Source: Diplonema japonicum (taxonomy: Eukaryota; Protista; Euglenozoa: Diplonemea). From it: a stretch of DNA of 64,000 bases. Made by a program: the position numbers and the translations under genes. The stretch lies in assembly GCA_964019335.1 (NCBI GenBank), contig OZ025698.1, positions 470,343 through 534,342 on the forward strand, given 5' to 3'. Below are positions 13,252-59,907 of the stretch, in pieces. Below the pieces are notes generated by a model, which saw only the letters and a list, made by a program, of their open reading frames with translations, was not told where the DNA came from and made no database searches. Each line of letters begins with the position of its first letter. Position 1 is the stretch's first letter.

Positions 13252-13353
13252 CCGAGTATTCCCCCCCTCCCCCCCCTCCTCTCATTTTCTTCTAAACTTC
13301 CACCAGGGTCTTTTCTTTTTTTTTTTCTTTTTTTTTTCTTCTTTTTCTCTTCA

Positions 13354-14556: not shown

Positions 14557-14830
14557 TTGGGGGGGGGGGGGGGAAGGAAAAAGAAAAAAGAGTGTGGAAA
14601 ATGAACCCTACCTTCGACCTTGTTTTTTATTTCCTCCGAAGAGTTCTAAAAAGATGAGGGGGCATATGAGGGTTGCTTTCAACTTCTATTCGGCCTCTGA
14701 GTTGGACGTTTAGGAAACTCTTCTGGTGGATTCTGTCTCACATCGCCTTCTATTCAATTACATTTCAGAGGAGATGCACCTTCTCGGTAGACTAGGAACA
14801 CCGAGGAATTCCCGGTTTACGCATCTTTTT

Positions 14831-17514
14831 GAGGCAGACGAATCCCCTGAACAGAGGGGACACGTGCCGTCCACCGATGACGCAGACGAGGGGACTGACA
14901 CCCCTGACTGCCCCAGGCACGCTGCGACACCAGAGAGAAAGGGTACGTAGGCTCGTAGGAGTTGCCACTAGGCAGACAACCCTACACACCACCCCCTCGC
15001 AGACAACACCCCTGCACAAGGTGAACCCTCCCGTAAAAAGGAAGGTAGAAGGCCAGTACTAAGGGCCGTGCAATCTCATTCAACACCCCTTTCACCCCCT
15101 TTCCCACACCGTCACTCACTCCCTATCCCTACTCCCAAACCCCCAACACTACACCCCATCTAAACGACGATGAAGTACTACCCAGCTTCTCAAGCCCTGG
15201 AAGCTGGGGTGACCGCAAAGGCAGCACATCATCACCACATCACCATCCCTCATCTTTCCCTCTCTCCTCGCACATTTCCTCCCCAAACAAGCACTCACAA
15301 ACTCCCGTCTCTGGTGACGAAGTATTACCCAGTATCCAAAGGCCTGGACCTAGGGGTGACCACACAGGCAATCTTCACTTTCGCAGAAATCCCGCAGCCA
15401 GCGGTCCGCACGGAAAACACTTACTGAGCTGCGGAGACATAGAAGCGAACCCCGGTCCAACCACCGAAAAGACAACAAGAGTTGAACACTCTCTCCCTCT
15501 ACTTCCTCTCTCTCACAGGCACACTCTAACACAACACCACCACCCAACAACATCAACGTACTGTCTCTCAATATCAGATCCCTAACGGTGAGCACCACAG
15601 CGCAGCTGCTGAAGGGCATTGAGACACACAACATCGACGTGCTCCTACTCCAAGAGACTTTCCTGAGGCCGTCAAAAGATATAACCGGAGTCTTCACTGG
15701 GTTCAAGGCATACCGCAGAGACCGAACACGACCGGTGAAAAGAGGAAAGCAAATCAGCGGAGGGGGTCTCGTCACACTGGTCAGAGAATCGATACCGTCG
15801 AAACAGATCGAAGTTCCTCAGAAACCCAGCGACGTGACGGAAAGACTCGACGTAGAGATCTCGCTGCCCAACCGGAAGCCGTACAGACTCGTCAACCTGT
15901 ACCTGCCTCCGACAACGGGTAGAGACGGCGACGACAGACCACCCCCCGAGAAATATTTCCGCCCAGCAGAGCTGCCTCATGACAGTCACACCATCATCGC
16001 CGGCGACATGAACGCCCACCACACGATGTGGGACAAAAGGGGCACACCGAACAAGCTGGGAGTAATACTGCACAGCTGGATGCTGCGATGGGGCTACAGC
16101 ACATGGAACAAGAGCAGCGAAGCCACGATCCTGAACCCGTCAGGAAACCCAACCTCTCCGGACATGGTAATGAGCGGCGCAGAGTTCGACAAATCTTCTT
16201 GGAGGACGTTGCCAGCAATGGGCTCAGACCACGTCCCGATGTTCTTCAGTCTGAGAGGGGGAGTCAGCCAACCGACCAGAAGAGTACTCTACTCTTGGGG
16301 GAGGGAGGCAAGGAGCGCGTACAGGGAGACGATGGAAGAAAAGTGCAGCAGGCTGCTCAGGGCCAGAGACCCGATAAGGCTAAACGCTGAGTTTCGCACG
16401 CTTCTTCTATCGGCAACCGAATCGTGCGTCCCCAGGAAAGGACAGAAGAAAGGGAAGGTTTGGTGGAACGACGAGATTGACGCACTCGCAAGGCGACGAA
16501 GCACACTGAAGGCGAAGCTGTTGTCCGAGGATCACGACGGGAACGACGAAGACCTGGCACGTCTAGCGGCGATGGAGGCAGAGCTGGACAGGGCGATATC
16601 GAGCGGGAAGCAGGCTGCCTGGGGCGACTACACCAAGAAGTTGTCCAAGGACGGAAACCTGTCGCAAGCCTTCTCGGTCATCCGCAGATTCGACGGTCGC
16701 AGCGAGAAGCCACCAGTAGCCCCGCTCCGACGAGGAAACGGTATCGCCACCACCGACAGGGAGAAGGCCAGTGTACTCGTCGAACACTACGCGAGGGCCT
16801 GCTCCCCAAGGACGACTGCCAAGTCGGAGGAAGTGATCACCGCCATCAAGAAGGACGCGAAGCCCGGGACAGACAACGACTTCCCCCTGGTAACGAAGGA
16901 CGAGCTGGACTCGGTGCTGCGAAGGCTGAAGAAGGGCAAGGCTCCGGGCCCAGACGGCATCTACAACGAAATGCTGAAGTACCTGGGACCTGTGGCCAGG
17001 GAAGTTCTACTCCTCCTCTACAACTCATCCCTCCAGACCGGTGTCGTCCCTGCCGAATGGAGGCGGTCTTCCATCATCCCCCTCATGAAAAAGGGCAAAG
17101 ACCAATCCGAACCCGCCTCGTACAGGCCGATCGCGCTGACGTCAAACATCGTGAAGACGTTGGAGCGTATAGTCAAGGACAGGATGTGCTTCCTGCAGGA
17201 CACAGGTCGGGTAAGGCAATTGCACACATCGCAGGCGGGTTTCCGCAAACGGAAAGGGAGGTCCACGGAGGAAAACGTGCTGTACGCCGCCTCAAAGCTC
17301 AAAAGTGTCAGGCTGAGCCAAGGTCTGGGGAGTCTCCTGCTGTTCGACTTCAAAGGAGCCTTCGACACAGCCTGGCACAAGGGAGTGATCGCAAAGCTGA
17401 TAGGCGACGGTTACCCTCCCAAGCTCGTGAAATGGATCACCTCTTTCCTCGACCAATGTAAAGCCTCCATCTGTGTGAACGGGGAACACGGCTGCGTGAA
17501 GACAATGACAGGGG
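14831..17514 (+). mobile_element. Non-LTR retrotransposon family A, internal fragment (ORF1 3' end, 2A motif, APE, RT N-half), decayed
   Basis: Near-identical to ~54582-57310 of the long A copy. 2A motif GDIEANPGP at 15433-15459; a 10-nt deletion after the 2A motif breaks the frame; homology stops just before the RT GVPQG motif. Confidence 0.9.
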
Positions 17515-17550
17515 CCTCGCCTGGTAGTGGAATATTTATTATTATTTATT
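17515..17550 (+). mobile_element. Extreme 3' tail (~35 bp) of a family C element
   Basis: cgcctggtagtggaata + (TTA)n-like tail matches the 3' end of the C copy at 19176-19207; followed by a degenerate target duplication. Confidence 0.7.
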
Positions 17551-17568
17551 CCAAGGAATTCCGTATCC

Positions 17569-19207
17569 TCTCATGTCCTGCCGGTGTTCACCTACTCGAT
17601 AGGCATCTTCTTCGCGATGATGACCACCCAGGACAGGAAGACGATGTGCATGAAACACGCGGGGGCGGCCCGTCGTATCACAGGGTGCGTCAAAAACACC
17701 TCCACCTCAGCCGTCATGTGCGAAGCCCGCTTACGCCCCCTCGACCTGATGGCCGATGCAGCGTCTGCTGTCCTATGGCAGAGGGCGCTAAGATGGGAAG
17801 GGACCCCGGTGAACAAGGTGGTCAGGGGTGCGGCGACCACAGGATGGACGAAAAGAGCGCTGGACACGGCAAGGAAATCCGGGCTCGGAACGGCGGCCTC
17901 CCAGCTCTTAGGGAGCACAACGAAGGCACCACCCTGGGTGGAAGGTATCCGAGTAGACCCCTACGCCACCGACACACGGAGGGCACTACCCGACGACGTA
18001 AGGGCGGCTGCGGCTGCGAAAAAACTGGCAGAGATTCCCAGCGATGCCTTGGTTGTGTACACGGACGGCTCGGTGGCGGGGGGAAGAGGAGGTGCAGGGG
18101 TCGCCATCAAGGTCCCTGACCTGGACTTCACCCTCACCACCTCGCATGGGGCCGGCGCGGTCTCCACACCCATGTGCGCCGAAGGCACCGCTATCCTGAA
18201 GGGGCTGCAGGAAGCCGGGGAGGTGTACAGGACGGCTGCGAGTCTGCGGGGGCGCCCCCTCTACCTGCTCACGGTCCCAATCGATGCTAAGGGGGCTCGC
18301 CGGTGGCCCCGGCCGACAGAGGGAGATCACGGACAGACGGATCTGGGACGCCGCTTCGTGGCTCAGGACCAAGCGCTCTGGAGACGTGCATTTCTGGTTT
18401 GTTCCCTCTCACTGCGGTGTAGCGGGGAACGAAAAGCAATCCTGTGGAGTCAGCTACCGCTCCAGCAAAGCGGCCGTGAAGGCATGGCTGAGGGGAACGA
18501 CGCTCCAGGCCATCACAGCCTCGTTACGAATGGCGACAGTCTCCCACTCCCTCCTCTGTAGGAGGGACGAGGTCCAGATCATACGACTCCGGACCGGGCA
18601 AACTCCCCTGATGAGAGGGTACCTACAGCTCAGGGGGCCCCTCAGGGCTTCGAGGGATCACCACCTCACCTGCCCCGCATGCGGCGTTCACTCTCCGCTA
18701 GACGCCGATCACCTGCTCAGGAGCTGTCCTTCCCTGGCCCCCGCTGCGAGAACCTTCTTCGACACTAGGCTGCCGCTCCGCGCGCTGCTTTCCAAGCACT
18801 CCGCCGAGGTCTGCGCCTTCATCGAGGCCTCCGGGTTCTTAACATGGTCCGAGTGTGGGATCCTCCCCCCGACCAACGCTGCTCACGGGTGAACATGAGC
18901 CCAAAATAGACCCCCCTTTTTCTTTTCCCAAACTCCCTGCCTCTCTTCCCCCCCCACACACACACACACAACCACAAAACGGGCCAAAGAACGCCTCCCA
19001 AGAGATGGTCACGGATGGCCGGGAGGGCGCAGGACGCAGCACGAGGACGCTCCTGCGTTGAATCTCGAGGGGTTCGCCCCGCATGTAATCAGCCAAGTCG
19101 GGCTGTCCCACGCAAGGGGAACGGAGAGCTGGAGGGATGGTTTATGGTTTCAACTTTCTCCGCCCCCATCCCCCCCGCCTGGTAGTGGAATAATTATTAT
19201 TATTATT
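17569..19207 (+). mobile_element. Non-LTR retrotransposon family C, 5'-truncated (RT C-terminal region, RNase H, CCHC finger, 3' UTR, (TTA)n tail)
   Basis: AARRITGC; RNase H motifs YTDGS..AEG..WFVPSHCGVAGNEK; RLRTG; CPACGVHSPLDADHLLRSC; one frameshift. Flanked by ccaaggaattccgtatcc (17551-17568) and caaaaaaaatccgtatcc (19208-19225). Confidence 0.85.
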
Positions 19208-19225
19208 CAAAAAAAATCCGTATCC

Positions 19226-20006
19226 CTGCAGACTGCTGGCCCGAACAGGAAGCACAAGGGTGTGCTCCGGTGCCCAGCCTGCCACGCAGCGCCGATGTCC
19301 AGGGAGCATGTTGTCGGTGGGTGCCCTGTGATCGGGAGGGGGGCGATCGACACTCCTGCTGGTACTCCCTCCCTAGCGTTCTCCCTGTCGAGACGCGTGA
19401 CCCAGATCTACGACCTCATTGTTGAGTCTGGCCTGCTCGCCTGGTCACGCTCCGGACTGTTCACCTCGCCATCATCCCTGGCGTCTACAGACGTCACTGC
19501 ACCTTCAAACGTGCCGCCCCCTCCTCCGGTCTCTCTTGACGCCGGTCCCGCGGCCCCCGTGCTGCGCTAAGGGATCGCCCCGCGTGTGTGTAAAGTGAAA
19601 TGTTGTGTTTTCCACTTTCCTTTCCCTTCCTTTCCCTTCCTTCCCCTTCCTCTCACTGTTTCCCATTTCCCCTTTTTTTTATTTTCACACTCACCAATGA
19701 TTCGCTCAATAGGAGCAATACCTCCCTGGGGGGCTTTCCGCCGGAGGTTCCAGCCAAAGAAGGACATCCAGCTGGAAGGTAGGCCCCCGTTTTTCTCTCA
19801 CTTGACTGAGGGAATAATGTAATTCAGCCCTCTTCGGCTGTCCCAAAGCAGAGCACGGGTTGGTGGGGGACCAGGGCTCCTCCTGCTTGCAGAAGCCTGG
19901 TCCTTTGCCCTCCCTATTTCCCCATGGTTTCCCTTCACCTTTTTTTTCCCTTTTCTCAGGTGTTGCTCTCCATGGCGGCCCTGCATTGGTATTTTGAAAA
20001 AAAAAA
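19226..20006 (+). mobile_element. Non-LTR retrotransposon family B, 5'-truncated copy (CCHC finger + 3' UTR + A tail)
   Basis: Near-identical to 26824-27588; bounded by (A)n-tccgtatcc on both sides. Confidence 0.9.
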
Positions 20007-20103
20007 TCCGTATCCGCACAAGGAGAAGGCAAAGCCGGAAGGGAACGGGGCCAGCACGCAGCTGGCCCAGTCCAAGGCCAGGGAGGAGCGGCGGGTGGAG
20101 AGG

Positions 20104-22875
20104 ATGCTCCGCAGCGCTGGAGCAGCCGGGGAGCTGGGGCAGCTCCTGACACCGGAGCACCGGGAGAAGATGACGGGGGTGGTCACCGTAATTGACCTCC
20201 TCACGCCCGACGCCGCCGCCGCTACAGCCGGCCCAGCGACACCTGTCGCCTCCACCCCGACCGGCTCCGTCAAAAGGCCGGTTTCGCCTGACGCCAGCGT
20301 CGCCACCCCGACCTCCAGCAAGAAAGCTAGGAGGAAGGCCGCCAGAGCCGCGCGCGCTGACGCTGCCGCCGAAGCCGCACACATAGCTGACGCCACACAC
20401 CCCCTCGAAGCCGCACGCACTGCGGCCGACGTCGAACTCGCGGGAATCGCTGCTGATTTGGAAGCTGCACGCGAGTCGGCCGACGTGGTAGCTGCAGAAA
20501 TAGCAGCTAAAATGAAGGCTGCGCAGGAGGTGGCTGATGCTGCTGTTGTCAAAATGGCAGCCGAGACGGAAGCTGCTCGCGTGGCTGGTGTGGAGGCTGC
20601 TCGCAGAGCAGTCGAGGCTGAGGAGAAGGCTCTGCGCGAGCGGTCTACTGCACGACTTGCGGCAGAGGAGAAGGAGGCTGCGCGTGCTGCGGCCGAGATG
20701 AAAGCAGCCGAGGAGAAGAAGGCTACAGCCGCAGCCGCTGCAGCCGAGAAGAAGCAAGCCGCAGCCGCCGCCGCCGAGAAGAAGGCCGACGCCGAGAAGA
20801 AAGCAGCAGCCGCCGCCGCCGCCGAGGAGAAGGCCGCCGCCGAGAAGAAAGCCGCAGCCGCCGCCGCCGAGAAGAAGGCCGCAGCCGACGCCGCCAGGAA
20901 GAAAGCTGCAGCCGCCGCCGCCGCCGCCGCCGCCGAGAAGGAGACCGCAGCCGCAGCCGCCGCCGCCGAGGAGAAGAAGAAGGTCGCAGCCACCGCCGCC
21001 GCCGAAAAGGAAGCCGCCGCCGCCGCTGCCAAAAAGGAGGAAGCTTTGAGGTTGGTGGCCGCCAAGAAGGCAGATGCCCAGAAGGTCGAGGACGAAGCAG
21101 TCGCGAACGCTTCCGCCAACGCGTCAACAGACCAAGGCACGCTCCTCCTTAGCTCAGACTCTGACACCAGCTCTGGCCCTGAGGAGATGGAGGACGACCC
21201 TGCCCCTGCCCCTTCCACAACCCCGCGATGGGACCTGGTGCCAGACACATGGGACGCCCCAATCTACACCAACGTGTCCCCCCCGACGGAAACATCCCGC
21301 GCTGTCATTGCGCTCGACGATCCCTCCGGAATGGGGGTCGTGTGCTCCGCGTTACCTACGGCATCCATCACCTTTGTCCTTATGACAGAGGTCCCCGGTG
21401 TCACCACCCCCAGCGAGATTGTCATGGTCTCTGGGTCGCGCGCAGTGAACAGGAGGGTCCACGTCTCCACGTTCGGGCTGGACCCCCCCACCTACACCCC
21501 GCCTTCCACCTTCAACAGCGGATCGGAGGTCGTCTACGTCTGTGTCAGTGCAGACAGCCTGAAGGAGGCGAAGGCCAGGGTCCTGGAGCTCGCCAAGGCT
21601 CAGGGCGCGGTGGTGGAGGATCGTGCGGTCTTCCGCCCAAGGAAGTTCGGTGAGGAGGAACCGCGGGCGAGGCACTGGACCCACGAGGTGGGACTGCGCC
21701 TGCAAGCAGCACACGTCCACGCCGTCCTGCGCCGGTCCGGGGACGGGTGCATGATCCGGACGACGGAGAGACGCGGGGGGTACGCTTATGTACCCATCGT
21801 GGCGGAAGGGAGGGCGGATGCCTTTCGGATTGCGGGGACGCTGGGTGGGTTGTCTCTCGGGGTGGCGCACCGTAAGGGATGGACTGTGCGGTGCCTACCG
21901 GAGACGGAACAGCGGCTCCGAGAAACCCTCGAAAAACTGCGTACGAAGCGCAAGTTTTTGCTCACCGGGGCCCCGCCGTCCATCACCAGGGCGGCCTTCG
22001 ACGAAGTGATGGACCACATCGGTTGGAAACCATCCTCCGTCCTGCGACGCACGCAGACGATGTTCCAGGGCACGAGGCAACTCGTGTTCTTCATCGTCGT
22101 CGACAGCCCGCCCCCGAAGTCCAGGACGTGGCTCCTTGGGGGGCGCCTTGTCTGCCTCCGTGATGCGGACGACCACCCGACCGTCAAGCCGCCCCCTCTC
22201 ATCAACAGGACGACACCTGCATCTGCACCTGCGCTTGCAACGTCCTCGACCCCGGCACCCACATCTTCTCATGTACCTGCACCTGCGCCTACTACACCTG
22301 TACCTGACCCGGCACCTGTATCGGCGTCGACACCCTCGGAGACTGGCCCTGCGGTGAAAGCAACTGGGCTTCCTCCCACCAGCCCGTGGGCGTCCATACC
22401 GAGCTCGGTGGCTCCCCCCCAGCTCGACACTGTGACGTCCCCTACACCGCCCCGCAACGTGTCTGCGGGAAACAAGGAGGGAGTCCCTTCCGGGTCGCCT
22501 GAGGTCGCCGCTCTCACTGAGCTCGTCGCCACGCTGAAGGAGTCGATCGTCGGGCTGCAGAGGACGATCGACTCTCAGCAGGAGATGATCTCCGATCTGC
22601 GGACGACGCTCCGCCTCCTCCTGCCGCAGGCGGCCACGCTGACGACGGGAACGGCAGTGCCGCGGGACCCTACACCGGGGGCGACGACGACACACGACAG
22701 TGTCTGGAAAGGGAAGGGGAAGGGGAAGAAGGGGGCTCCTCCTCTCGCTACGACCTCTGAGGCTGCGGTGACGAACCTGGGTACGAGGGGGCGGGCCAGG
22801 TCGTTCGCGGAGACCAAAGATCTCTTCACCAATGGGGTCAAGGGGCGCTCTGCCTCCATGGGTCCATCCAATTGA
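20104..22875 (+). CDS. Family B ORF1 (Ala/Lys/Glu coiled coil, globular central region, Pro-rich linker, short coiled coil); may be 5'-truncated
   Basis: The frame is open from the element's 5' junction; the first ATG inside the element is 20104. Position upstream of pol identifies it as ORF1. Confidence 0.7.
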   Translation: MLRSAGAAGELGQLLTPEHREKMTGVVTVIDLLTPDAAAATAGPATPVASTPTGSVKRPVSPDASVATPTSSKKARRKAARAARADAAAEAAHIADATHPLEAARTAADVELAGIAADLEAARESADVVAAEIAAKMKAAQEVADAAVVKMAAETEAARVAGVEAARRAVEAEEKALRERSTARLAAEEKEAARAAAEMKAAEEKKATAAAAAAEKKQAAAAAAEKKADAEKKAAAAAAAEEKAAAEKKAAAAAAEKKAAADAARKKAAAAAAAAAAEKETAAAAAAAEEKKKVAATAAAEKEAAAAAAKKEEALRLVAAKKADAQKVEDEAVANASANASTDQGTLLLSSDSDTSSGPEEMEDDPAPAPSTTPRWDLVPDTWDAPIYTNVSPPTETSRAVIALDDPSGMGVVCSALPTASITFVLMTEVPGVTTPSEIVMVSGSRAVNRRVHVSTFGLDPPTYTPPSTFNSGSEVVYVCVSADSLKEAKARVLELAKAQGAVVEDRAVFRPRKFGEEEPRARHWTHEVGLRLQAAHVHAVLRRSGDGCMIRTTERRGGYAYVPIVAEGRADAFRIAGTLGGLSLGVAHRKGWTVRCLPETEQRLRETLEKLRTKRKFLLTGAPPSITRAAFDEVMDHIGWKPSSVLRRTQTMFQGTRQLVFFIVVDSPPPKSRTWLLGGRLVCLRDADDHPTVKPPPLINRTTPASAPALATSSTPAPTSSHVPAPAPTTPVPDPAPVSASTPSETGPAVKATGLPPTSPWASIPSSVAPPQLDTVTSPTPPRNVSAGNKEGVPSGSPEVAALTELVATLKESIVGLQRTIDSQQEMISDLRTTLRLLLPQAATLTTGTAVPRDPTPGATTTHDSVWKGKGKGKKGAPPLATTSEAAVTNLGTRGRARSFAETKDLFTNGVKGRSASMGPSN

Positions 22876-23016
22876 AGGGGCCCCGCAGAACAGGGGGAGC
22901 AGCAGATCTACGACCATGCTCCCTCTCCTAGTCTCCCTCGCATCCTCCCCAGGAGACTCCTACCTCTCTGTTTCTTCACCGACTTTTCTGCACTGATCCC
23001 CACCCTACTCGGGAGG

Positions 23017-26000
23017 ATGTCCGTCAGGGACCTGCTGGGGCTGCTTGGGCTGGTCGAAACAAACCCTGGCCCACCCAAGAAGCTGCCGCCCCCGTCGCCT
23101 AAGGGTCTCAAGGTTGTCTCGTGGAACTGCAACGGCCTCGTTGCGAAATGGACCGTCGTATCTCGCCATGCTGACTTCTTGTCGCTGGACATCATCATGA
23201 TACAGGAGACGCACCTGAGGGAAGGGCACGACACGCCACACCTGCCTGGGTACAGGTCATACAGGAGGGATCGGTTGACACCGGTGACTGACGGCACTGC
23301 GACGAGGGGTGGTGGTATTGTCACGTATGTCCGCGACGATCTTGCCTCGGAGGAGGTTCCGCACGTACTCCCGGCTGGGGACTGTGTCACTGAGAGACTG
23401 GATGTGAGGATCTCCTGCGAGAAGCGTGAGCCGATCACTCTCTCCAACGTTTACCTTACACCGGTAAGCGCGAGCAGAGGCACGAGGGACCCTGAGTACC
23501 TGCGGCCTGGCAGCCTTCCCATGGGGAAGAACACAGTCATAGCGGGTGACTTCAATGCTCACCACAGCTCCTGGGACGCCACGGTGACGACGCCGAACGA
23601 GAGGGGGAACGTGGTCAGGGACTGGCTGGACACCCACGGGTACTCCGTCTACAACGACCGCAACGAACCGACGAGGGACTCGTCACGACACGTTCTGGAC
23701 CTGGTTGTGGGGCGCTGCGCGAAGCTTGAGCCGAAGACGCTGGGCACGTGGGGCTCCGATCATAGTCCCGTATCCTTTCACCTGCCTCTTGAGGACGTCT
23801 ACCGTTCGGAGCGCCCCTTCCCCACCTGGAATTTCAAAAAAGCCAGATGGGATGACTACACTGCTGCTGTTGCCCGCCTGCTTGCTGGTGTTGACACGGC
23901 GGCTCCGATTGACTCTGTCACGAAGGGGTTTACACAAGCCCTTTTGACTGCGGCGAACGACCACATTCCCCTCTGTGGGATGCGACGTGGCCCGACCCCC
24001 TGGTGGACTGCTGAGCTCGAGGACGCCTTCGAAGAGCGGAACACCCTGCGCGAACTCCTGCTCCAAGAGGCGGACGTGGTGGTGGAGGAGTACAGGGCGA
24101 AGGTGAAAGAAGTCAACCGACTTCTTGACGAGACGAAGCGTGAGGCATGGGGAAGGATGGCGGCCGACCTCAGCCGGAGCAAGGACCTCGGGGCTGCGTT
24201 CAGAGCGGTGAAGAAGCTGGACGGCAGGCACCGAAAGACACACCTTCCTGTACTCGAGGGAAGATTTGTGTCGGACAAGGCGAAGGCCGACCGGCTGGGG
24301 GCGCACTTCGCTAAGCTCTACGGCAGGCGTGGTGACGGGAACTCGAAGGACGCCGCTCCTTCTGCAAGCAGACTCGGGTGTCAAGCGTTCACCGTGGACG
24401 ACCTCACCCGCGGCCTGAGAAGGATGAAGACGCGCAGCGCGGCCGGGGAAGACGGAATCTTCTCGGAGATGCTCCTACACCTGAACACGGACTCCCTCGG
24501 TGTCCTCCTTCTACTCCTCAATCGCTCCTGGCTGATGGGTGTCGTTCCCGGTGCCTGGAAGAAGGGAGTGATCGTCCCGGTACCGAAACCTGGAAAAGAT
24601 GCGACTCTCTTGGCTTCCTACCGGCCGATCTGCCTGACCAGCTGCCTCTGCAAGCTGCTGGAGAGGATGATCGAGGAGAGGCTCACGTTTCTTCTTGACG
24701 CGGATGGGACGGGAGTCGAGGGACTCCACGACAGCCAGGCTGGTTTCAGACGCGGCCGCTCCACGGAGGAGCAGGTGGCATACCTCACTGAGTGCATGTC
24801 GAGGAACAAAGACGATCGACGTCTCTCGGCCGCTCTGCTGTTCGACTTCTCTTCTGCCTTCGACCTGGTGCCCCATGGTGCCCTGCTGGACAAGATGCGA
24901 GGGAAGGGTCTCCCCGAACCCTTCGTGGAGTGGACGCGGTCCTTTCTATGCGGCCGTACTGCTGCGGTCACGATTGGACGGTCGAGGGGGTCGACGACGA
25001 AGGTGCGACGGGGTGTCCCCCAGGGCTCTGTCTTGGGTCCCATCCTGTACACCATCTACGTCGACGAACTCGCCAGGAGACTGGAGGGACTGGCGGACGT
25101 CTCGGTGCTCTACGCCGACGACGTGGCGGTTGTGATCTCCTCTGGACAAGGGGACGTGGCTGGGCTGGAGCGGAAGGCGCAGGCGGTGGTGGATGCGGTT
25201 GAGGACTGGTGCAGGGAGCGTGACATGCTGCTGAGCACGTCCAAGACGCAGGCAGTCTGCGTCCCCCCCCAGAAACGTCTCGGGGTCTACTTCACTTCGT
25301 CACGAGTCCCCCTTCAGCCAGGTGCCTTCCAGAACCCACTCTTCGGCCTGGGGGTGAACGCCGATGGCACGATCTCCGGGGACCAGGAGCTGGCGGGCCT
25401 TCAGGTTGTGGAGGCGGGTGGTGTGCGGATCCGCTGCGTGCGGGACATGCATGCAGCCGTGCGACGGCCCGACGTGGATTACGTTGCGGCCCGTCCCCTG
25501 CCTCTATCTGAACACGCGAGGTACCTTGGGGTTACGGTGGACTCTGGGCTCACGTTCGGTGAACACGCACAGGACATCCTACGGCGGGCCAGCAAAAGGC
25601 TGAGGGTGCTGAAGCTCTTGTCCGGCACGTCCTGGGGCAGCAAGAGGGACACTCTGCGGTCTCTCTACGTTACGTACATCCTCCCGCTGCTGCGCTACTG
25701 CATGGGGGTCTACTACAGCAGGCTCGATGATGTCGGGAGGAAGGACCTGGCTGGGCTTCACCAGGAGGCGGCGGTGCTGATCACGGGCTGCTGGAGTGGC
25801 TCCGGAGGGCACAAGCTCCTAGCTGAGGCAGGACTGCTTCCCCTCGAAAGAATGGCGGAGGGTGCTGCGGCGACGATGACGGCGAAGGCCTTCTGCTGGC
25901 AGTCTTCCCCGGTTCACAGGGAGACGGTCAAGCTGAAGCAGGCGAACAGGCTGGGGTGTGGGTGGCTGCGCTCTGGCTACCAAGCACTGCGTCGATGCGG

Positions 26001-27168
26001 GTTGGAACCAAAGGTGCACTTCGAGTACCTGTCGGCTACGCCCCTGGCGGCCCCGTGGCAGACAGGCATGGTCGACTTCAGGACTGACCTCCCCGGCGGG
26101 GTCACGCGATCGTCGCCAGACGCGGACAGGCGGAAGGCGGCCGAGGCTGCTCTTGCGGCTCTCCCCCCGGGCATCCATGCCTACACAGATGGCTCGGTTG
26201 TACAGGTCGGACAGAAGGCGAAAGGTGGCTCTGGGGTTTATCTGCAGCTGCCTCCCCCCCTGACCCCTGTGTCTATGTGCCATGGCGTCAACGACTTCTG
26301 TTCATCTTTTCGGGCAGAGGGCATGGCTGTGAAAACGGCGCTGGATATGGTGGCTACCCTCCGAAAAACACACCCTTCGCTGGCGAAGTCCCCGCTGTCG
26401 ATCTGCACCGACTCCCTCTCCCTCGTCGAGCAGCTGCGAGCTGGCCCAACGCGACAGAGGGAGAAGCTCGACCACCAGACGTGGAGCCGGCTGGTGTCCG
26501 CGGCGCGCACGCAGGGGACACCGGTGGTCCTCCAGTTTGTGCCCTCCCACTGTGGGGTGGACGGGAACGAGAAGGCTGACGCTCTGGCCGTGGAGGGAAC
26601 GAAGCGGAAGCAGGACAGGCCCTCCCTTGACTACCGATCAGTGAGGGCCCTGGTGCGACGGTGGGTGGTGCGGAGGTCCGCGGAGCTCATAACATCCCTC
26701 GCCCACAACTACGCGGTGGCGACCGAGCTTCGGTCCGCGCACTTCCCCCTTGGCTTCCCCAGACAAGCTGAAACGGTCATCTCGCGGCTGCGGATTGGTC
26801 ACTCGGCTCTCTTCTTCGGCTTCCTGCAGACTGCTGGCCCGAACAGGAAGCACAAGGGTGTGCTCCGGTGCCCAGCCTGCCACGCAGCACCGATGTCCAG
26901 GGAGCATGTTGTCGGTGGGTGCCCTGTGATCGGGAGGGGGGCGATCGACACTCCTGCTGGTACTCCCTCCCTAGCCTTCTCCCTGTCGAGACGCGTGACC
27001 CAGATCTACGACCTCGTTGTTGAGTCTGGCCTGCTCGCCTGGTCACGCTCCGGACTGTTCACCTCGCCATCATCCCTGGCGTCTACAGACGTCACTGCAC
27101 CTTCAAACGTGCCGCCCCCTCCTCCGGTCTCTCTTGACGCCGGTCCCGCGGCCCCCGTGCTGCGCTAA
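23017..27168 (+). CDS. Family B ORF2: 2A-like motif, AP endonuclease, reverse transcriptase, RNase H, CCHC finger
   Basis: GLVETNPGP; WNCNG, IQETHL, GDFNAHH, SDH (APE); YRPICLTS, QAGFR, DFSSAFD, GVPQGSVLGP, YADD, RYLG (RT); YTDGS, RAE, TDS, VPSHCGVDGNEKAD (RNase H); CPAC..H....C. Confidence 0.95.
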   Translation: MSVRDLLGLLGLVETNPGPPKKLPPPSPKGLKVVSWNCNGLVAKWTVVSRHADFLSLDIIMIQETHLREGHDTPHLPGYRSYRRDRLTPVTDGTATRGGGIVTYVRDDLASEEVPHVLPAGDCVTERLDVRISCEKREPITLSNVYLTPVSASRGTRDPEYLRPGSLPMGKNTVIAGDFNAHHSSWDATVTTPNERGNVVRDWLDTHGYSVYNDRNEPTRDSSRHVLDLVVGRCAKLEPKTLGTWGSDHSPVSFHLPLEDVYRSERPFPTWNFKKARWDDYTAAVARLLAGVDTAAPIDSVTKGFTQALLTAANDHIPLCGMRRGPTPWWTAELEDAFEERNTLRELLLQEADVVVEEYRAKVKEVNRLLDETKREAWGRMAADLSRSKDLGAAFRAVKKLDGRHRKTHLPVLEGRFVSDKAKADRLGAHFAKLYGRRGDGNSKDAAPSASRLGCQAFTVDDLTRGLRRMKTRSAAGEDGIFSEMLLHLNTDSLGVLLLLLNRSWLMGVVPGAWKKGVIVPVPKPGKDATLLASYRPICLTSCLCKLLERMIEERLTFLLDADGTGVEGLHDSQAGFRRGRSTEEQVAYLTECMSRNKDDRRLSAALLFDFSSAFDLVPHGALLDKMRGKGLPEPFVEWTRSFLCGRTAAVTIGRSRGSTTKVRRGVPQGSVLGPILYTIYVDELARRLEGLADVSVLYADDVAVVISSGQGDVAGLERKAQAVVDAVEDWCRERDMLLSTSKTQAVCVPPQKRLGVYFTSSRVPLQPGAFQNPLFGLGVNADGTISGDQELAGLQVVEAGGVRIRCVRDMHAAVRRPDVDYVAARPLPLSEHARYLGVTVDSGLTFGEHAQDILRRASKRLRVLKLLSGTSWGSKRDTLRSLYVTYILPLLRYCMGVYYSRLDDVGRKDLAGLHQEAAVLITGCWSGSGGHKLLAEAGLLPLERMAEGAAATMTAKAFCWQSSPVHRETVKLKQANRLGCGWLRSGYQALRRCGLEPKVHFEYLSATPLAAPWQTGMVDFRTDLPGGVTRSSPDADRRKAAEAALAALPPGIHAYTDGSVVQVGQKAKGGSGVYLQLPPPLTPVSMCHGVNDFCSSFRAEGMAVKTALDMVATLRKTHPSLAKSPLSICTDSLSLVEQLRAGPTRQREKLDHQTWSRLVSAARTQGTPVVLQFVPSHCGVDGNEKADALAVEGTKRKQDRPSLDYRSVRALVRRWVVRRSAELITSLAHNYAVATELRSAHFPLGFPRQAETVISRLRIGHSALFFGFLQTAGPNRKHKGVLRCPACHAAPMSREHVVGGCPVIGRGAIDTPAGTPSLAFSLSRRVTQIYDLVVESGLLAWSRSGLFTSPSSLASTDVTAPSNVPPPPPVSLDAGPAAPVLR

Positions 27169-27361
27169 GGGATCGCCCCGCGTGTGTGTAAAGTGAAATG
27201 TTGTGTTTTCCACTTTCCCCTTCCTCTCACTGTTTCCCATTTCCCCTTTTTTTTATTTTCACACTCACCAATGATTCGCTCAATAGGAGCAATACCTCCC
27301 TGGGGGGCTTTCCGCCGGAGGTTCCAGCCAAAGAAGGACATCCAGCTGGAAGGTAGGCCCC

Positions 27362-27816
27362 CGTTTTTCTCTCACTTGACTGAGGGAATAATGTAATTCA
27401 GCCCTCTTCGGCTGTCCCAAAGCAGAGCACGGGTTGGTGGGGGACCAGGGCTCCTCCTGCTTGCAGAAGCCTGGTCCTTTGCCCTCCCTATTTCCCCATG
27501 GTTTCCCTTCACCTTTTTTTCCCCTTTTCTCAGGTGTTGCTCTCCATGGCGGCCCTGCATTGGTATTTTGAAAAAAAAAAAAAAAAAATACACGAAACGT
27601 TTTCTCTCACTTGACTGAGGGAATAATGTAATTCAGCCCTCTTCGGCTGTCCCAAAGCAGAGCACGGGTTGGTGGGGGACCAGGGCTCCTCCTGCTTGCA
27701 GAAGCCTGGTCCATTGCCCTCCCTATTTCCCCATGGTTTCCCTTCACCTTTTTTTTCCCTTTTCTCAGGTGTTGCTCTCCATGGCGGCCCTGCATTGGTA
27801 TTTTGAAAAAAAAAAA
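27362..27816 (+). repeat. Tandem duplication of the ~210-bp 3'-terminal segment of element B
   Basis: Unit cgtttt(t)ctctcacttgac...ggtattttg(A)n at 27362-27588 and 27598-27816, separated by tacacgaaa. Confidence 0.9.
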
Positions 27817-27822
27817 TCCGTA

Positions 27823-27894
27823 TCCTCGGTAGTATAGAGGTCAGTATATCCGCCTGTCACGCGGATGACCCGGGTTCAATTCCCGGCCGGGGAA
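27823..27894 (+). tRNA. tRNA-Asp(GTC)
   Basis: Cloverleaf: TCCTCGG/CCGGGGA acceptor, TCCGC-CTGTCAC-GCGGA anticodon arm, CCGGG-TTCAATT-CCCGG T arm; T-run at 27897-27902. Confidence 0.92.
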
Positions 27895-27939
27895 TATTTT
27901 TTGTTCAAGTTTCCTTTTCCAGATTTTTAAAAAGAAAAA

Positions 27940-29935: not shown

Positions 29936-30499
29936 CACATAAACTACGGACCTGCGCTTTGAACCCAGGTTACTCAAGATGCAGACACCGCAGCTCACGC
30001 TCTTCTCTATTTCCTTTTTTTTCCCTTGTTTGGCAGTTCTTTATAAGTTTAAATGCCACGCTTTTGCTCTTTACCTCCCTTCTCCCCCCTCCCTTTTTTT
30101 TTTTACAACATTGTTAGTGCGGAGGCCGCACGGAACGAAAATGTTCCCCCAATTCTGACCATACCATACTTTGACCCCCTTTCAAGACTTGTGTGGAAAT
30201 AATAGCGTTGGGCTAACACCGCCTCTTTTTTTCTTCTTTTTTATTATTTGTGTATTTTTTGTATTGCTGAAAAAAGGCTGCTCGTTTTCTAGAAAAGGTA
30301 TAAATAAAAAATGAAGACCTCTTGCGAAGTGCAGTCTTCCTCACAGCTTTGTCAGGTGAATGAGAAGGCGACAAGGCTCGATTCCGGGGGGGGGGGGGGG
30401 GGGGGGGGGTTGTGTGTTCCTTTCATGGGGACGTACTTGGGGAACGTGGAGGCGAACTTCTGTCAATTTACAGGAGTACCAAAAAAAAAAAAAAAAAAA

Positions 30500-41764: not shown

Positions 41765-41767
<3 letters not shown>

Positions 41768-41802
<35 letters not shown>
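41768..41802. repeat. (GA)n microsatellite
   Basis: Directly visible. Confidence 0.85.
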
Positions 41803-41805
<3 letters not shown>

Positions 41806-41905
41806 CTTTCCTGCTAGCACCGTGGGCGCCGAATGGGTTGTGTGGACACAGGGTCTAGTTTTCTTCTTCCACAGGTTTACCCCTCTTTTTGATTGTAAAA
41901 TTAAT

Positions 41906-48999: not shown

Positions 49000-49081
49000 C
49001 CCTTTTTTTCCCCCCCCTCACCTAATATCTTATTTTGGAACTCAATACGGAACTCAGAAAAAAAAAAGTTTATTCTTTTAA

Positions 49082-52722: not shown

Positions 52723-53182
52723 CCCGGTCTTTTCTCCGTCATAGAAAGCCCAGTGCCGGCATGGGAGGAAGGATGAAATATGGAAAACAAAATTTATTGG
52801 GAAAAAAGCACCCACCGTTTCCTTAAACCTAAAAAAATTTTTTTCCCCACCAAGTGCGGTAACCACAACTTATTTTCTTACTGTAACTACCAAGTTTTTT
52901 CCCGATTAGGGTTTATCATAAAATGTAGTATGAGGTGCAAAAATAATGCATGGAGGCATGGCAAAATTATTATTCACCCCCCTCCATTGCCATCAAACTT
53001 GTTGCTGCTTTTCTTCTTTCGTCGTTATGGTGTCTCTCTGCTTTCTTCTCGGCGGCGGCGTTTCTTCACTCAACACAGGTGGAATGAACAGAAACGTTGG
53101 GTGTCCCACCAGACACAGGCGTCGGTGCTTTTTGTCATCTTATTCCATACATCAACGCGATTTCCGGCAAATAGAATCTGAA

Positions 53183-53576
53183 TATTTTATTTTCACACTC
53201 ACCAATGATTCGCTCAATAGGAGCAATACCTCCCTGGGGGCTTTCCGCCGGAGGTTCCAGCCAAAGAAGGACATCCAGCTGGAAGGTAGGCCCCCGTTTT
53301 TCTCTCACTTGACTGAGGGAATAATGTAATTCAGCCCTCTTCGGCTGTCCCAAAGCAGAGCACGGGTTGGTGGGGGACCAGGGCTCCTCCTGCTTGCAGA
53401 AGCCTGGTCCTTTGCCCTCCCTATTTCCCCATGGTTTCCCTTCACCTTTTTTTCCCCTTTTCTCAGGTGTTGCTCTCCATGGCGGCCCTGCATTGGTATT
53501 TTGAAAAAAAAAAAAAAAAAATACACGAAACGTTTTCTCTCACTTGACTGAGGGAATAATGTAATTCAGCCCTCTT
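53183..53576 (+). mobile_element. Family B 3'-UTR fragment forming the 5' part of the insertion at tRNA-Leu
   Basis: Matches ~27250-27643, including the A tract, the tacacgaaa spacer and the start of the second terminal repeat; lies inside the 14-bp TSD. Confidence 0.9.
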
Positions 53577-53601
53577 TTATAAAAAAAAAAGGTAGGGAAG
53601 G

Positions 53602-53633
<32 letters not shown>

Positions 53634-53636
<3 letters not shown>

Positions 53637-54854
53637 TCAAGTGACAAAATGACGAAGCCGAGCAAGGCGGGCGCCTCCAAGGGGCCCCTACCGGACGGGA
53701 GCGAGCCCGACCAAGACCCGCCGCAGCTAGTGCTGCAAACCACCGAGGTGGTGATCAGAAAGACCCCCCCCGAGACGACCCCCAAGACGAAGCCCACCCG
53801 GAAGCACTACGACGCAGTCGTAGCCCCGCTTGCCCCCAAGCCCACGTGGGCGGCCTTCATTGCGCAGGCTGGACTGGGGAAGTCGATGAGGTTCGACGGT
53901 GTCCTAGGCACCATCGTAACCACAGGGACTCCCCCTCTTCAGTCCTACTCAGTGAGGGACGGAGACACTACCCATAAGGTGGTGTTCGAGGAGCAGAAGG
54001 GATCCTTTAAAAGGAAACTACCGGGTGGGTCTCGTAGAGGGACCAAAATAGACTTCCGCAGGGAGTTCGGGGGGGCGAGCTGGTCGCAGGTGTGGGAGCT
54101 GGCCGACGAGAAGGAGGGGAGGAAGAAGAAGGCGAGAGAGGAGAAGGGGGCCAAAGCCGCAAAAAGGAAGGCCGAGGCCAGGGAAAGAGAGGAGAAGCTG
54201 GAGGCGAGGATCCAGGCGCTGGAGAGCGCCGAGAAGGAAGAGGGAGGCGGGATGGAGGACGACTGGGGCTGGAGGGAAGCCATGGACAGGCGGATTGCCG
54301 AGTTGGAGCAGGCGAGGGAACAGGCCGGGCTGTGGGAGAAGGCGTGCGAGAGGAAGGTGGAAGAGGTGGAGATGAGAAGGGTGCGTACGGACGAGAGGAC
54401 TGAGGAGCTGAACAGGAGGGTGGGCCTGGTGGAGGGCGAGCTTGGTGGCCTGAGGGGGGAGATTTCTTCCTTGAAGGCGTCATCGGAGAGGACGGAGCGG
54501 TCGGTGGAGGAGCTGAAGCAAGGGATGAACAGATTACTCATCCACTTGACTACAGGAGCCCCCCCACCAGGAACCTCCGAGGAGGCAGACGGGTCCCCAG
54601 AACAGAGGGGACACGTGCCGTCCACCGATGGCGCTGACGAGGGGACTGACACCCCAGACTGCCCCAGGCACGCTGCGACACCGGAGAGAAAGGGTACCGT
54701 AGCACCTTTATGCTACGACACCCCCCCACCAGCCGAAAGGCTCGTAGGAGTTGCCACAACAAGGCAGACAACCCTACACACCACCCCCTCGCAGACAACG
54801 CCCCTGCACAAGGTGAACCCTCCCGTAAAAAGGAAGGTTGAAGGCCAGTACTAA
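53634..54854 (+). CDS. Family A ORF1 (basic, long coiled coil)
   Basis: 406-aa ORF after a poly(A) leader, directly upstream of pol; its 3' end is also present in the 14831 copy. Confidence 0.8.
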
Positions 54855-57800
54855 GGGCCGTGCAATCTCATTCAACACCCCTTTCACCCCCTTTCCCACA
54901 CCGTCTCTCACTCCCTGTCCCTACTCCCAAACCCCCAACACTACACCCCATCTAAACGAAGATGAAGTACTACCCAGCCTCTCAAGCCCTGGAAGCTGGG
55001 GTGACCGCAAAGGCAGCACATCATCACCACATCACCATCCCTCATCTTTCCCTCTCTCCACGCACAATTCCTCCCCAAACAAGCACTCACAAACTCCCGT
55101 CACCGGTGACGAAGTATTACCCAGTATCCAAAGGCCTGGACCTAGGGGTGACCACACAGGCAATCTTCACATTCGCAGAAATCCCGCAGCCAGCGGTCCG
55201 CACGGAAAACACTTACTGAGCTGCGGGGACATAGAAGCGAACCCCGGTCCAACCACCGAAAAGACAACAAGAGTTGAACACTCTCTCCCTCCCGTCCCCT
55301 CTACTTCCTCTCTCTCACAGGCACACTCCAACACAACACCACCACCCAACAACATCAACGTACTGTCTCTCAATGTCAGATCCCTAACGGTGAGCACCAC
55401 AGCGCAGCTGCTGAAGGGCATTGAGACACACAACATCGACGTGCTCCTACTCCAAGAGACTTTCCTGAGGCCGTCGAAAGATATAACCGGAGTCTTCACT
55501 GGGTTCAAGGCATACCGCCGAGACCGAACACGACCGGTGAAAAGAGGAAAGCAAATCAGCGGAGGGGGTCTCGTCACACTGGTCAGAGAATCGATACCGT
55601 CGAAACAGATCGAAGTTCTTCAGAAACCCAGCGACGTGACGGAAAGACTCGACGTAGAGATCTCGCTGCCCAACCGGAAGCCGTACAGACTCGTCAACCT
55701 GTACCTGCCTCCGACAACGGGTAGAGACGGCGACGACAGACCACCCCCCGAGAAATATTTCCGCCCGACAGAGCTGCCTCATGACAGTTACACCATCATC
55801 GCCGGTGACATGAACGCCCACCACACGATGTGGGACAAAAGGGGCACTCCGAATAAGCTGGGAGAAATACTGCACAGCTGGATGCTGCGATGGGGCTACA
55901 GCACATGGAACAAGAGCAGCGAAGCCACGATCCTGAACCCGTCAGGAAACCCAACCTCTCCGGACATGGTAATGAGCGGCGCAGAGTTCGACAAATCTTC
56001 TTGGAGGACGTTGCCAGCAATGGGCTCAGACCACGTTCCGATGTTCTTCAGTCTGAGAGGGGGAGTCAGCCAACCGACCAGAAGAGTACTCTACTCTTGG
56101 GGGAAGGAGGCAAGGAGCGCGTACAGGGAGACGATGGAAGAAAAGTGCAGCAGGCTGCTCAGGGCCAGAGACCCGATAAGGCTAAACGCTGAGTTTCGCA
56201 CACTTCTTCTATCGGCAACCGAATCGTGCGTCCCCAGGAAAGGACAGAAGAAAGGGAAGGTTTGGTGGAACGACGAGATTGACGCACTCGCAAGGCGACG
56301 AAGCACACTGAAGGCGAAGCTGTTGTCCGAGGATCACGACGGGAACGACGAAGACCTGGCACGTCTAGCGGCGATGGAGGCTGAGCTGGACAGGGCGATA
56401 ACGAGCGGGAAGCAGGCTGCCTGGGGCGACTACACCAAGAAGTTGTCCAAGGACGGAAACCTGACGCAAGCCTTCTCGGTCATCCGCAGATTCGACGGTC
56501 GCAGCGAGAAGCCACCAATAGCCCCGCTCCGACGAGGAAACGGTATCGCCACCACCGACAGGGAGAAGGCCAGTGTACTCGTCGAACACTACGCGAGGGC
56601 CTGCTCCCCAAGGACGACTGCCAAGTCGGAGGAAGTGATCACCACCATCAAGAAGGACGCGAAGCCCGGGACAGACAACGACTTCCCCCTGGTAACGAAG
56701 GACGAGCTGGACTCGGTGCTGCGAAGGCTGAAGAAGGGCAAGGCTCCGGGCCCAGACGGCATCTACAACGAAATGCTGAAGTACCAGGGACCGGTGGCCA
56801 GGGAAGTTCAACTCCTCCTCTACAACTCATCCCTCCAGACCGGTGTCGTCCCTGCCGAATGGAGGCGGTCTTCCATCATCCCCCTCATGAAAAAGGGCAA
56901 AGACCAATCCGAACCCGCCTCGTACAGGCCGATCGCGCTGACGTCAAACATCGTGAAGACGTTGGAGCGAATAGTCAAGGACAGGATGTGCTTCCTGCAG
57001 GACACAGGACGGGTAAGGCAATTGCACACATCGCAGGCGGGTTTCCGGAAAGGGAGGTCCACGGAGGAAAACGTGCTGTACGCCGCCTCAAAGCTCAAAA
57101 GTGTCAGACTGAGCCAAGGTCTGGGGGGTCTCCTGCTGTTCGACTTCAAAGGAGCCTTCGACACAGTCTGGCACAAGGGAGTGATCGCAAAGCTGATAGG
57201 CGACGGATACCCTCCCAAGCTCGTGAAATGGATCACCTCTTTCCTCGACCAACGTAAAGCCTCCGTCTGTGTGAACGGGGAACACGGCTGCGTGAAGACA
57301 ATGACAGGGGGCGTACCCCAAGGCACCATCCTGGCCCCGCAGCTCTTTTCCATCTACGTCAACGACCTGGCCAGGTTGTACAGGAAGGCTGGAATCGACG
57401 CGGTAGTGTACGCAGACGACATAGCGATAGTGCTGGAGGCGGGGAGTCCTGCCGAGCTGAACAAGAAGGTGCAACGCGCGGTGAGCCTCACGGAGCGATG
57501 GTGCGAGACGTTCTCGATGAAACTGTCCCAGGAAAAGACAGAGTTCATGCCGGTAGAGGGACAGTTCTGGAACTCGCACGACAGTCTCGCAAACCTCATC
57601 AACGCCCGCTTCCCCTCGAGTGGGGCGAAAGTCAAGGTGGTACGCGAGGCTAAATATCTTGGCGTCACCTTCGACGAAAGCATGAACTTCCACGAGCATG
57701 TGCAGAAGGTGAAGGGAAAGATCAACAGCCGTCTTCGCCTGCTGCGCAAACTCGCCGGAACAAGGTGGGGCTGCCGCAAGCACACCCTAAGGACGCTGTA

Positions 57801-59163: not shown

Positions 59164-59208
59164 GACTCTCACGACCGCCGAGCCGCTGACCGCAATCGCA
59201 GGACGTAG

Positions 59209-59249
<41 letters not shown>

Positions 59250-59790
59250 AACAGAAAAAAGTGAACCAAAAAGTACTAGTGAACCCTCTCCCCCTCCCCC
59301 TGTGTTTCCCATTATTACCCTGTCGTGCACCCCAACTTCTGTCTTCACCTTTCCCCGCCCCTTCACACATCCCCCCGTATCATTTCCCTTTGTTTTGAAT
59401 TTTCTAAGGCTCCGCCGCCCAACAAAGCTGGCTGAAGGGGATGCCTCCGTGCCAGTGTGCCGCTCGTGAGGGCGAGCACGGACGAGGTACCCCACTCCTC
59501 AAAAACCCGGAGGTTCGCCCGAAGGGTGCTGGCTTGGGAAGCGGGCTGGAGAGCTGCCGGGGTCACGGAGGTGGGCGAAGTCGCGAACACTGGAGCCCAC
59601 GAACCGGCCCCACCTCCGTCCTCGGTACGTATGGATAGTTTAGCGGAAGTTTCAAGGTTATCACATTCCTTTCCCCCTTTCGTTAGATACAGGGAGACCC
59701 TTGGTCCACCTGTTCTGTCCCCCCCCCCAGCCTTTGCTTCGCACGTCAGTGGTTCATTTATTATTATTATTATTAAAAATAGAATCTGAA

Positions 59791-59872
59791 GGCGAGATGG
59801 CCGAGCGGTCTAAGGCGCTACGTTCAGGTCGTAGTCTCTTCGGGGGCGTGGGTTCAAACCCCACTCTCGTCA
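59791..59872 (+). tRNA. tRNA-Leu(CAG)
   Basis: GGCGAGA/TCTCGTC acceptor + A73, TGGCCGAGCGG A-box, CTACG-TTCAGGT-CGTAG anticodon arm, long variable arm, GTGGG-TTCAAAC-CCCAC T arm, T6 terminator. Confidence 0.95.
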
Positions 59873-59907
59873 TTTTTTCCTAAAACAGATCAGATTCCTG
59901 ACACAAC

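Follow-up and report, generated by a model that had tools for sequence, protein, structure and literature searches.

How can a row of retrotransposon copies come to lie directly at the start of a transfer RNA (tRNA) gene that is itself intact? The question is raised by a stretch of 64,000 nucleotides from the diplonemid Diplonema japonicum (assembly GCA_964019335.1, contig OZ025698.1, positions 470,343 to 534,342 of the forward strand; denoted here as the window). Three families of long interspersed nuclear element (LINE)-type retrotransposons, A, B and C, are found there tail-first at tRNA starts, most conspicuously in a stack of copies preceding tRNA-Asp(GTC). That tRNA genes are targeted as such is held with high confidence. 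It is likely, at a lower degree of certainty, that the elements are steered to the start region used by RNA polymerase III (Pol III) and not by a DNA word.

Insertions at two tRNA genes

The tRNA-Asp gene was identified by ARAGORN and Rfam (63.4 bits); its stem pairs are all standard, and a T run follows downstream. Bases -6 to +3, counted from the first tRNA base (+1), form the nine-base word TCCGTATCC, which occurs at 17560, 19217, 20007 and 27817, as originally predicted, and nowhere else on either strand of the window. These four copies compare with a mean of 0.27 expected, and none of 100 shuffles reached four. The last copy reaches into the intact tRNA gene up to base +3. Self-comparison, alignment and translation yield the same order of blocks as first described: an A fragment carrying a C tail, a truncated C copy, a truncated B copy, a near-complete B copy and the intact tRNA gene, with TCCGTATCC between the blocks. 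The A fragment differs from the A copy at 54582-57310 by 51 substitutions in 2678 aligned bases (1.9%), and the short B copy from the long one by 4 substitutions in 747 bases plus one gap of 24 bases. The host open reading frames (ORFs) on both sides of the stack, an ankyrin-repeat gene (13252-14556) and a WSC-domain gene (27931-29895), are open.

The only other tRNA gene of the window, an intact tRNA-Leu(CAG) at 59791-59872, is likewise preceded by an element. A complete-looking family A copy stops 14 bases before its +1, inside a perfect target-site duplication (TSD) of 14 bp; its ORF2 encodes the 2A motif GDIEANPGP, an APE endonuclease domain, a reverse transcriptase (RT), an RNase H and a CCHC finger. 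At both tRNA genes of the window (two of two), the tail of an element thus lies no more than 16 bases from +1, and nucleotide and tblastn searches found no element copy in the 64 kb outside the Asp and Leu clusters. The naive chance that both sites lie at most 16 bases from a tRNA start in the right orientation is 1.3e-7, a figure calculated post hoc. Upstream of the A copy, and within the same duplication, lies a B fragment; the spacer between the two (53577-53634) consists of A10, 14 mixed bases and A30, followed by the ATG of A, and the mixed bases hold a weak six-base match to tRNA-Leu -3 to +3. This spacer may be a worn second TSD or the 5' untranslated region (UTR) of A, and B and A may have arrived there in one event or in two.

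At tRNA-Asp, the 12-mer at 17551-17562 has a single other site with at most one mismatch on both strands of the window, at 14801, 18 bases to the left of the A fragment. Since this is where a left TSD copy belongs, and since the leader of a tRNA-Asp paralogue is alike (11 of 16 bases), the sequence at 17551-17565 is probably the original tRNA-Asp leader. The original prediction had taken the most distal copy as the most degraded one of an 18-bp duplication (-15 to +3). This candidate, a decayed copy of the A-rich duplication, was rejected in view of the 14801 partner and the similar paralogue leader, and the distal copy is better read as native leader. The 18-bp form, formerly regarded as the fullest duplication, is inseparable from poly(A) tails, so that the nine-base word alone is certain: in the two B copies of the Asp stack, the A tails hide the left edge of the duplication, which measures 9 to 19 bases. 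The first insertion at tRNA-Asp probably duplicated about -15 to -4, whereas that of C probably duplicated -6 to +3, possibly to +5. Judged from TSD ends at only five sites or events, the lower strand would be nicked at -5/-6 or at -14 to -16, and the upper strand would be cut between -4 and +5.

The junction of tail, spacer and repeat in the long B copy is found again at the Leu site, within the B fragment (53504-53576). As it is common to both sites, the tail-spacer-tail unit would stem from a donor; the simplest candidate is a stacked locus whose transcript ran on beyond the first tail. The fusion of A fragment and C tail at 17515 may result from a template switch or from a later deletion. 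That the element includes the tRNA was considered and rejected: the tRNA gene ends in a T-run terminator of its own, encodes no CCA and differs between the sites.

Serial insertion at the 5' edge of the tRNA gene, each event regenerating the gene, is consistent with the sequence of every junction. The earlier proposal of at least four successive insertions with regenerated tRNA gene and target therefore stands, all junctions fitting it, and the Leu site and two tail-to-tRNA junctions in public contigs add to it. The claim that three families are stacked at tRNA-Asp has to be amended: the families are distinct, but the 3' end of family A itself is absent from this stack, and targeting by A is shown by the Leu site. 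The long B copy is long as described; 217 bp of its 3' end are also repeated within it, and it is devoid of the first ORF1 codons.

Tails in public contigs and the proposed steering

Contigs of four of the 21 listed runs were compared with positions 14300-28300 of the window, and the matches listed comprise 32 of 21,077 pieces, 24 of 449 loose ends and 15 of 36 joints. One contig of run X1 is identical to the left stack junction (14630-14870), and another X1 contig links the 3' part of tRNA-Asp to the next gene. Contigs of runs X2 and X4 begin to match family C at 17573. Among the rows listed, eight cross a complete tail into readable flank. Two of them lead to a tRNA start: one tail ends 16 bases before +1 of the tRNA-Asp paralogue (runs X1 and X4, belonging to two studies), the other 5-6 bases before a tRNA-like 5' end with an A box (one X4 contig, read by eye from 24 bases, with the anticodon not visible). 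The remaining six lead, after a spacer of 2-28 bases, into a truncated B or C copy and represent stacks elsewhere. A C-to-B joint (19167 to 26425) with an incomplete tail and two unreadable loose ends of poly(A) only were left out of the eight. None of these eight rows has a flank of unrelated DNA; joints can land only on the compared stretch, and the count is not a genome-wide estimate. A shorter or empty Asp allele does not occur in the 15 of 36 joints listed, which is no evidence of its absence. Differences from the contigs fall toward the gene (A fragment 42/2566, C 7/420 and 8/702, long B 12/3553), a gradient that would be expected if every newly arriving copy were placed directly beside the gene.

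Before 19141 and 19174, other sequences join the 3' terminus of C (loose ends of X2 and X4). A C-type tail is probably common to further families, and one of these could be the source of the tail joined to the A fragment. Runs X2 and X4 presumably represent RNA, as a loose end at 27922 resembles a spliced leader.

The targeted set hence encompasses tRNA-Asp, tRNA-Leu, the tRNA-Asp paralogue and one tRNA-like start, whose leaders, as far as visible, are alike only slightly. The orientation is the same throughout: the element lies on the tRNA strand, its 3' tail 5-16 bases before +1, and the duplication of 9-14 bases ends between -4 and +3/+5. According to standard target-primed reverse transcription, the nick made by APE in the lower strand would fall near -6 or near -15, RT would copy the element RNA from its tail, and the upper strand would be cut near +1. 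The proximal copy of the duplication would stay with the tRNA gene, so that the gene, its internal A/B-box promoter and the target would survive even a cut inside the acceptor stem. Each new copy would land beside the gene and displace the older ones outward, at least four times at tRNA-Asp, and read-through of a stacked donor likely brought the tail-spacer-tail unit to both sites. Steering by Pol III is inferred because the leaders share little, the site was reused after the leader beyond -6 had become poly(A), and the cuts wobble. The tether would be TFIIIB/TFIIIC or Pol III, by analogy with the Dictyostelium element TRE5-A, and such host-factor tethering is the means of targeting that we consider likely.

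Tethering would be dispensable if the element endonuclease read the DNA itself, recognizing a loose motif in the leader or else the A box at +8. The distance of this box from +1 is constant among all tRNA genes, Dada transposons cut within it (PMC3706591), a relative sequence preference is described for Ingi/L1Tc (PMC5814959), and the Asp and Leu leaders share GAATY..G.A, to which the leader of the Asp paralogue is similar. Direct reading is nonetheless unlikely, since the cuts on both strands vary as given above, the site is still used once poly(A) replaces the leader beyond -6, the third tRNA-like gene does not contain the motif in its six visible leader bases, and three families that are about 30% identical would all need the same rule. 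Still less probable is a preference for the A/T-rich tails of earlier copies, with the first hits near tRNA genes being due to open chromatin and selection in a gene-dense polycistronic genome. It would account for the six of eight readable tail flanks that lead to another element, and it has a parallel in trypanosomes, where tandem L1Tc copies are parted by one 9-bp TSD and an RHS hot spot is known (PMC5814959, PMC7563717). However, tRNA bases +1 to +3 are found in every spacer of the Asp stack, no earlier element was present in the leaders that were hit first, at -15 (Asp) and at -14 (Leu), and the base-pair closeness at four tRNA starts exceeds what selection for a harmless interval would lead to.

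Several points weigh against steering by the Pol III machinery as a general property of these elements. The age gradient is confounded with family. Joints favour element-to-element and Asp rows, only one listed loose end constitutes an unbiased tail flank, and the short side of the joint at the Asp paralogue measures only 23-27 bases. The tally covers one window plus a small, biased contig sample and is not a genome-wide share at tRNA genes. None of the loci of 21 distant metagenome relatives contains a tRNA; these were the relatives among 132 metagenome stretches, mostly 22-33% identical and many on contigs that stop before the element 3' end, and they are too remote and too short to inform on the present family, providing a weak test of how widespread targeting is. 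The loose motif common to the Asp and Leu leaders leaves room for sequence reading, and contact with Pol III factors is presumed by analogy. Finally, none of the pieces among the matches listed crosses the four internal junctions or spans the stack from end to end. This would also suit an assembly artefact stringing repeat copies together, which is highly improbable: the blocks differ from one another in 5' truncation point and in substitutions, an assembler would not insert a 9-mer taken from a tRNA gene where unlike families meet, X1 holds the left junction exactly, like junctions occur at other contig loci, and the Leu site is independent.

Steering to the Pol III start region thus remains the reading preferred here. 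A wider one can be put forward tentatively, as possible but doubtful in its entirety: an Ingi-related lineage older than the split of D. japonicum and D. ambulator would have gained tRNA targeting independently of amoebae and fungi, cutting one face of the DNA (near -6 and near -15, at a distance of one helical turn) beside a bound Pol III complex; the second cut would fall in the acceptor stem with the gene being restored, and the stacks would serve as units of transcription and transduction.

Element families, feature coordinates and surroundings

ORF2 of A and B is 32% identical, and C shows 29-31% identity to B and 26-29% to A, in line with distinct families. Pfam (Exo_endo_phos, RVT_1) places APE, RT and RNase H in this order in A and B, while C is without APE and RT through truncation; the translations of A, B and C contain one CCHC-type finger each. 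The best PDB matches are L1 ORF2p and R2. The elements have 3' poly(A) or simple-repeat tails, 5' truncations and short variable TSDs, and by their sequence A and B are classified as APE-type retrotransposons without long terminal repeats (non-LTR). A 2A-like motif, GD(V/I)ExNPGP, precedes APE; family A matches it, and in family B the D is missing. This motif is not specific for Ingi, as it is also present in Rex1, L2, L2A, Crack and CR1 (PMC3708506). Two relatives, P0002 and P0199, harbor two tandem 2A-like motifs, and the repeat in P0002 (D. ambulator) spans the 2A together with the beginning of APE. An ORF upstream of ORF2 comprises 407 codons in A and about 950 in B, which differs from the single ORF of Ingi. 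A pattern search for L1Tc-type C2H2 fingers (CX2CX12HX3-5H) in the family-B protein P0001 yielded none, and Rfam at gathering scores gave no window hit beyond the two tRNAs, a search that included no direct comparison to a Pr77 sequence. What is likely the 5' end of A is rich in adenine (fold z -1.63), the 5' ends being placed only approximately.

Of the 1383 residues of B ORF2, 7 differ from the D. japonicum protein P0001, which is derived from a transcript, and the sister tip of family A in the RT tree is the D. japonicum transcript protein P0151; A and B are transcribed, with ORF2 open. D. ambulator possesses A-like and B-like proteins (SH-aLRT 97 and 98), and the families therefore split before D. 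japonicum and D. ambulator did. The closest relatives of family C are D. ambulator proteins (34-43%, tblastn). In a FastTree phylogeny of 157 RT domains, the grouping of A with B has a support of only 0.83. A quick IQ-TREE search, limited to 41 rows hand-picked from the first tree, places both without further resolution inside a 31-row clade (SH-aLRT 100). The RT clade of A and B includes D. papillatum proteins named Tbingi, L1Tc and jockey; these names are automatic only, and protein and HMMER searches returned no labelled Ingi, I, R1 or NLTR-A reference. By sequence, A and B are regarded as Ingi-related; in behaviour they resemble TRE5 and NLTR-A, and they are filed under neither.

The long B copy might have acquired a substitute for its missing ORF1 start. 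In the 3' UTR of the short B copy (19922-20016), a pyrimidine tract, an AG and an ATG (19972) are found, the latter in frame with long B ORF1 through the A tail and the TSD. This region could give the 5'-truncated long B a trans-splice site and a start, the chance of a matching frame being 1 in 3. A loose contig end before 20016 (run X4) also offers an in-frame ATG for this ORF.

Features of the Asp and Leu sites (window positions; all on the + strand)
Feature	Positions	Strand	Basis or remark
Oldest TSD, left copy	14801..14812	+	11/12 bases = tRNA-Asp leader -15..-4; then 18 bases before A fragment
Family A fragment, both ends truncated (ORF1 end, APE, first RT part)	14831..17514	+	Pfam Exo_endo_phos, RVT_1
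C-like 3' tail with (ATT)n, fused to A fragment	17515..17550	+	87% match to 19173-19225
Probable original tRNA-Asp leader (-15..-1) plus +1..+3, match to +5	17551..17570	+	holds TSD copy 1 (17560-17568)
Family C copy, 5'-truncated; RNase H frameshift near 18260, CCHC finger, (ATT)n plus A8 tail	17573..19216	+	tblastn
TSD copy 2 (tRNA-Asp -6..+3)	19217..19225	+	exact word match
Family B copy, 5'-truncated: last 114 codons, 3' UTR, A10 tail	19226..20006	+	alignment to long B
TSD copy 3	20007..20015	+	exact word match
Long B ORF1, ~950 codons, Ala/Lys-rich, no Pfam hit, without start codon and first few codons	20016..22875	+	ORF, Pfam scans
Long B ORF2, open, 1383 aa: 2A-like N-terminus without motif D, APE, RT (YADD), RNase H, CCHC finger	23017..27168	+	Pfam
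Long B 3' UTR, A18 tail (27571-27588), foreign spacer of 9-11 bases, 217-bp B 3'-end repeat, A11 tail	27169..27816	+	self-comparison
TSD copy 4, live target (-6..+3)	27817..27825	+	exact word match, tRNA call
tRNA-Asp(GTC), intact	27823..27894	+	ARAGORN, Rfam
Left copy of perfect 14-bp TSD (tRNA-Leu -14..-1)	53169..53182	+	alignment
Fragment of family B (3' UTR), upstream of A and within the duplication at tRNA-Leu	53185..53576	+	99.7% to 27251-27643
Family A copy, complete-looking: ORF1 53634-54854, ORF2 frame 54829-59163, 3' UTR, (ATT)n tail	53634..59776	+	ORFs, Pfam, alignment
Right copy of 14-bp TSD	59777..59790	+	alignment
tRNA-Leu(CAG), intact	59791..59872	+	ARAGORN, Rfam

Apart from these sites, the window contains four ankyrin-repeat genes on the + strand (1421-2833, 13252-14556, 30308-32035 and 59902-61161), three of them with a weak N-terminal ubiquitin-like match, and two WSC-domain genes on the same strand (starting at 27931 and 37728); both groups represent local paralogue families. 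An ORF of 1783 codons (41609-46960) is composed of about nine tandem units of 435 bp, which are 93-96% alike and give weak FOLN matches. At 52068-52650, an ARF-like small GTPase gene, recognized by eye, has a stop before its C-terminal end and is possibly a pseudogene. Broken ORFs and end motifs at about 49000-51240, with no tRNA gene adjoining, look by eye like the remnant of a piggyBac-type DNA transposon.

Comparison with known systems

Within the literature searched, with subscription journals and Repbase outside its scope, there is no report on retrotransposons targeted to tRNA genes in Euglenozoa. If true, the targeting described here would represent an independent origin of this habit among LINEs in Discoba, far from the dictyostelids, and it would fall in relatives of Ingi/L1Tc, for which only a loose sequence preference has been reported. 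In a gene-dense, co-oriented (polycistronic) genome, a tRNA start would be a site that can be hit repeatedly without loss, and one for which several families of about 30% identity compete. As A and B are open and transcribed in a cultured species, the host-tether and endonuclease readings are testable at base-pair resolution, and an active copy would, if the wider reading is true, offer a natural means of integration that spares genes in a euglenozoan amenable to culture.

Ingi and L1Tc elements are characterized by the order APE-RT-RNase H, an N-terminal 2A, a 5' end with Pr77 and an HDV-like ribozyme, and no ORF1 (PMC12278014, PMC3708506), as well as by short TSDs, tandems in which the copies have one TSD in common, and the RHS hot spot (PMC5814959, PMC7563717). 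The excerpts of these four papers contain no report of tRNA targeting by them. In D. papillatum, transposon ORFs are listed without a tRNA association in the portion of the source consulted, and a rigorous analysis is said there to be pending (PMC10161547). The Diplonema elements share with Ingi/L1Tc the euglenozoan host, the domain order, the 2A motif (family A), the short TSDs, the tandems and the RT clade with the auto-named D. papillatum proteins. Ingi/L1Tc contain a single ORF, and L1Tc encodes two C2H2 fingers; in A and B, an ORF1 is present and the finger is a single one of the CCHC type.

Dewa is a member of the Tx1 clade. It resides at the zebrafish tRNA-Leu spacer and is thus also tRNA-associated, while Dada, unlike the elements described here, is a DNA transposon that breaks the tRNA gene (PMC3706591). 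Ty3 and DGLT-A insert about 15 bp before +1, near the distal nick position proposed here, but are LTR elements with an integrase (PMC5006619). TRE5-A of Dictyostelium discoideum, which inserts about 47-50 bp upstream, the 5' end being directed toward the gene, and forms tandems at one gene (PMC5391098, PMC5006619), needs the B box, and its ORF1 protein binds TBP in vitro (PMC5391098). Position- and orientation-specific non-LTR insertion upstream of several tRNA types and the formation of tandems are common to TRE5-A and the Diplonema elements; in the latter, however, the 3' tail faces the gene and an RNase H is present, whereas TRE5-A shows an APE-RT-zinc finger organization without RNase H.

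The original prediction knew of no tRNA targeting by RNase H-type elements, and this has to be revised in view of Dp_NLTR-A from Dictyostelium purpureum, the closest precedent. It is a non-LTR element with an RNase H after the RT that is located 2-6 bp upstream of the first base of the mature tRNA (16 of 28 copies with a listed distance), and its authors place it in no RNase H clade (PMC5006619). Both it and the Diplonema elements are RNase H-bearing non-LTR elements directly upstream of tRNA genes. Compared by description only, the latter differ from this element of an amoebozoan host in their tails at 5-6 or 14-16 bases from +1, in a TSD that enters the tRNA and in the use of the site by three families. 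The tRNA-targeting habit of an RNase H-bearing non-LTR element is hence already published (PMC5006619), and what is new in Diplonema is the host lineage together with these details.

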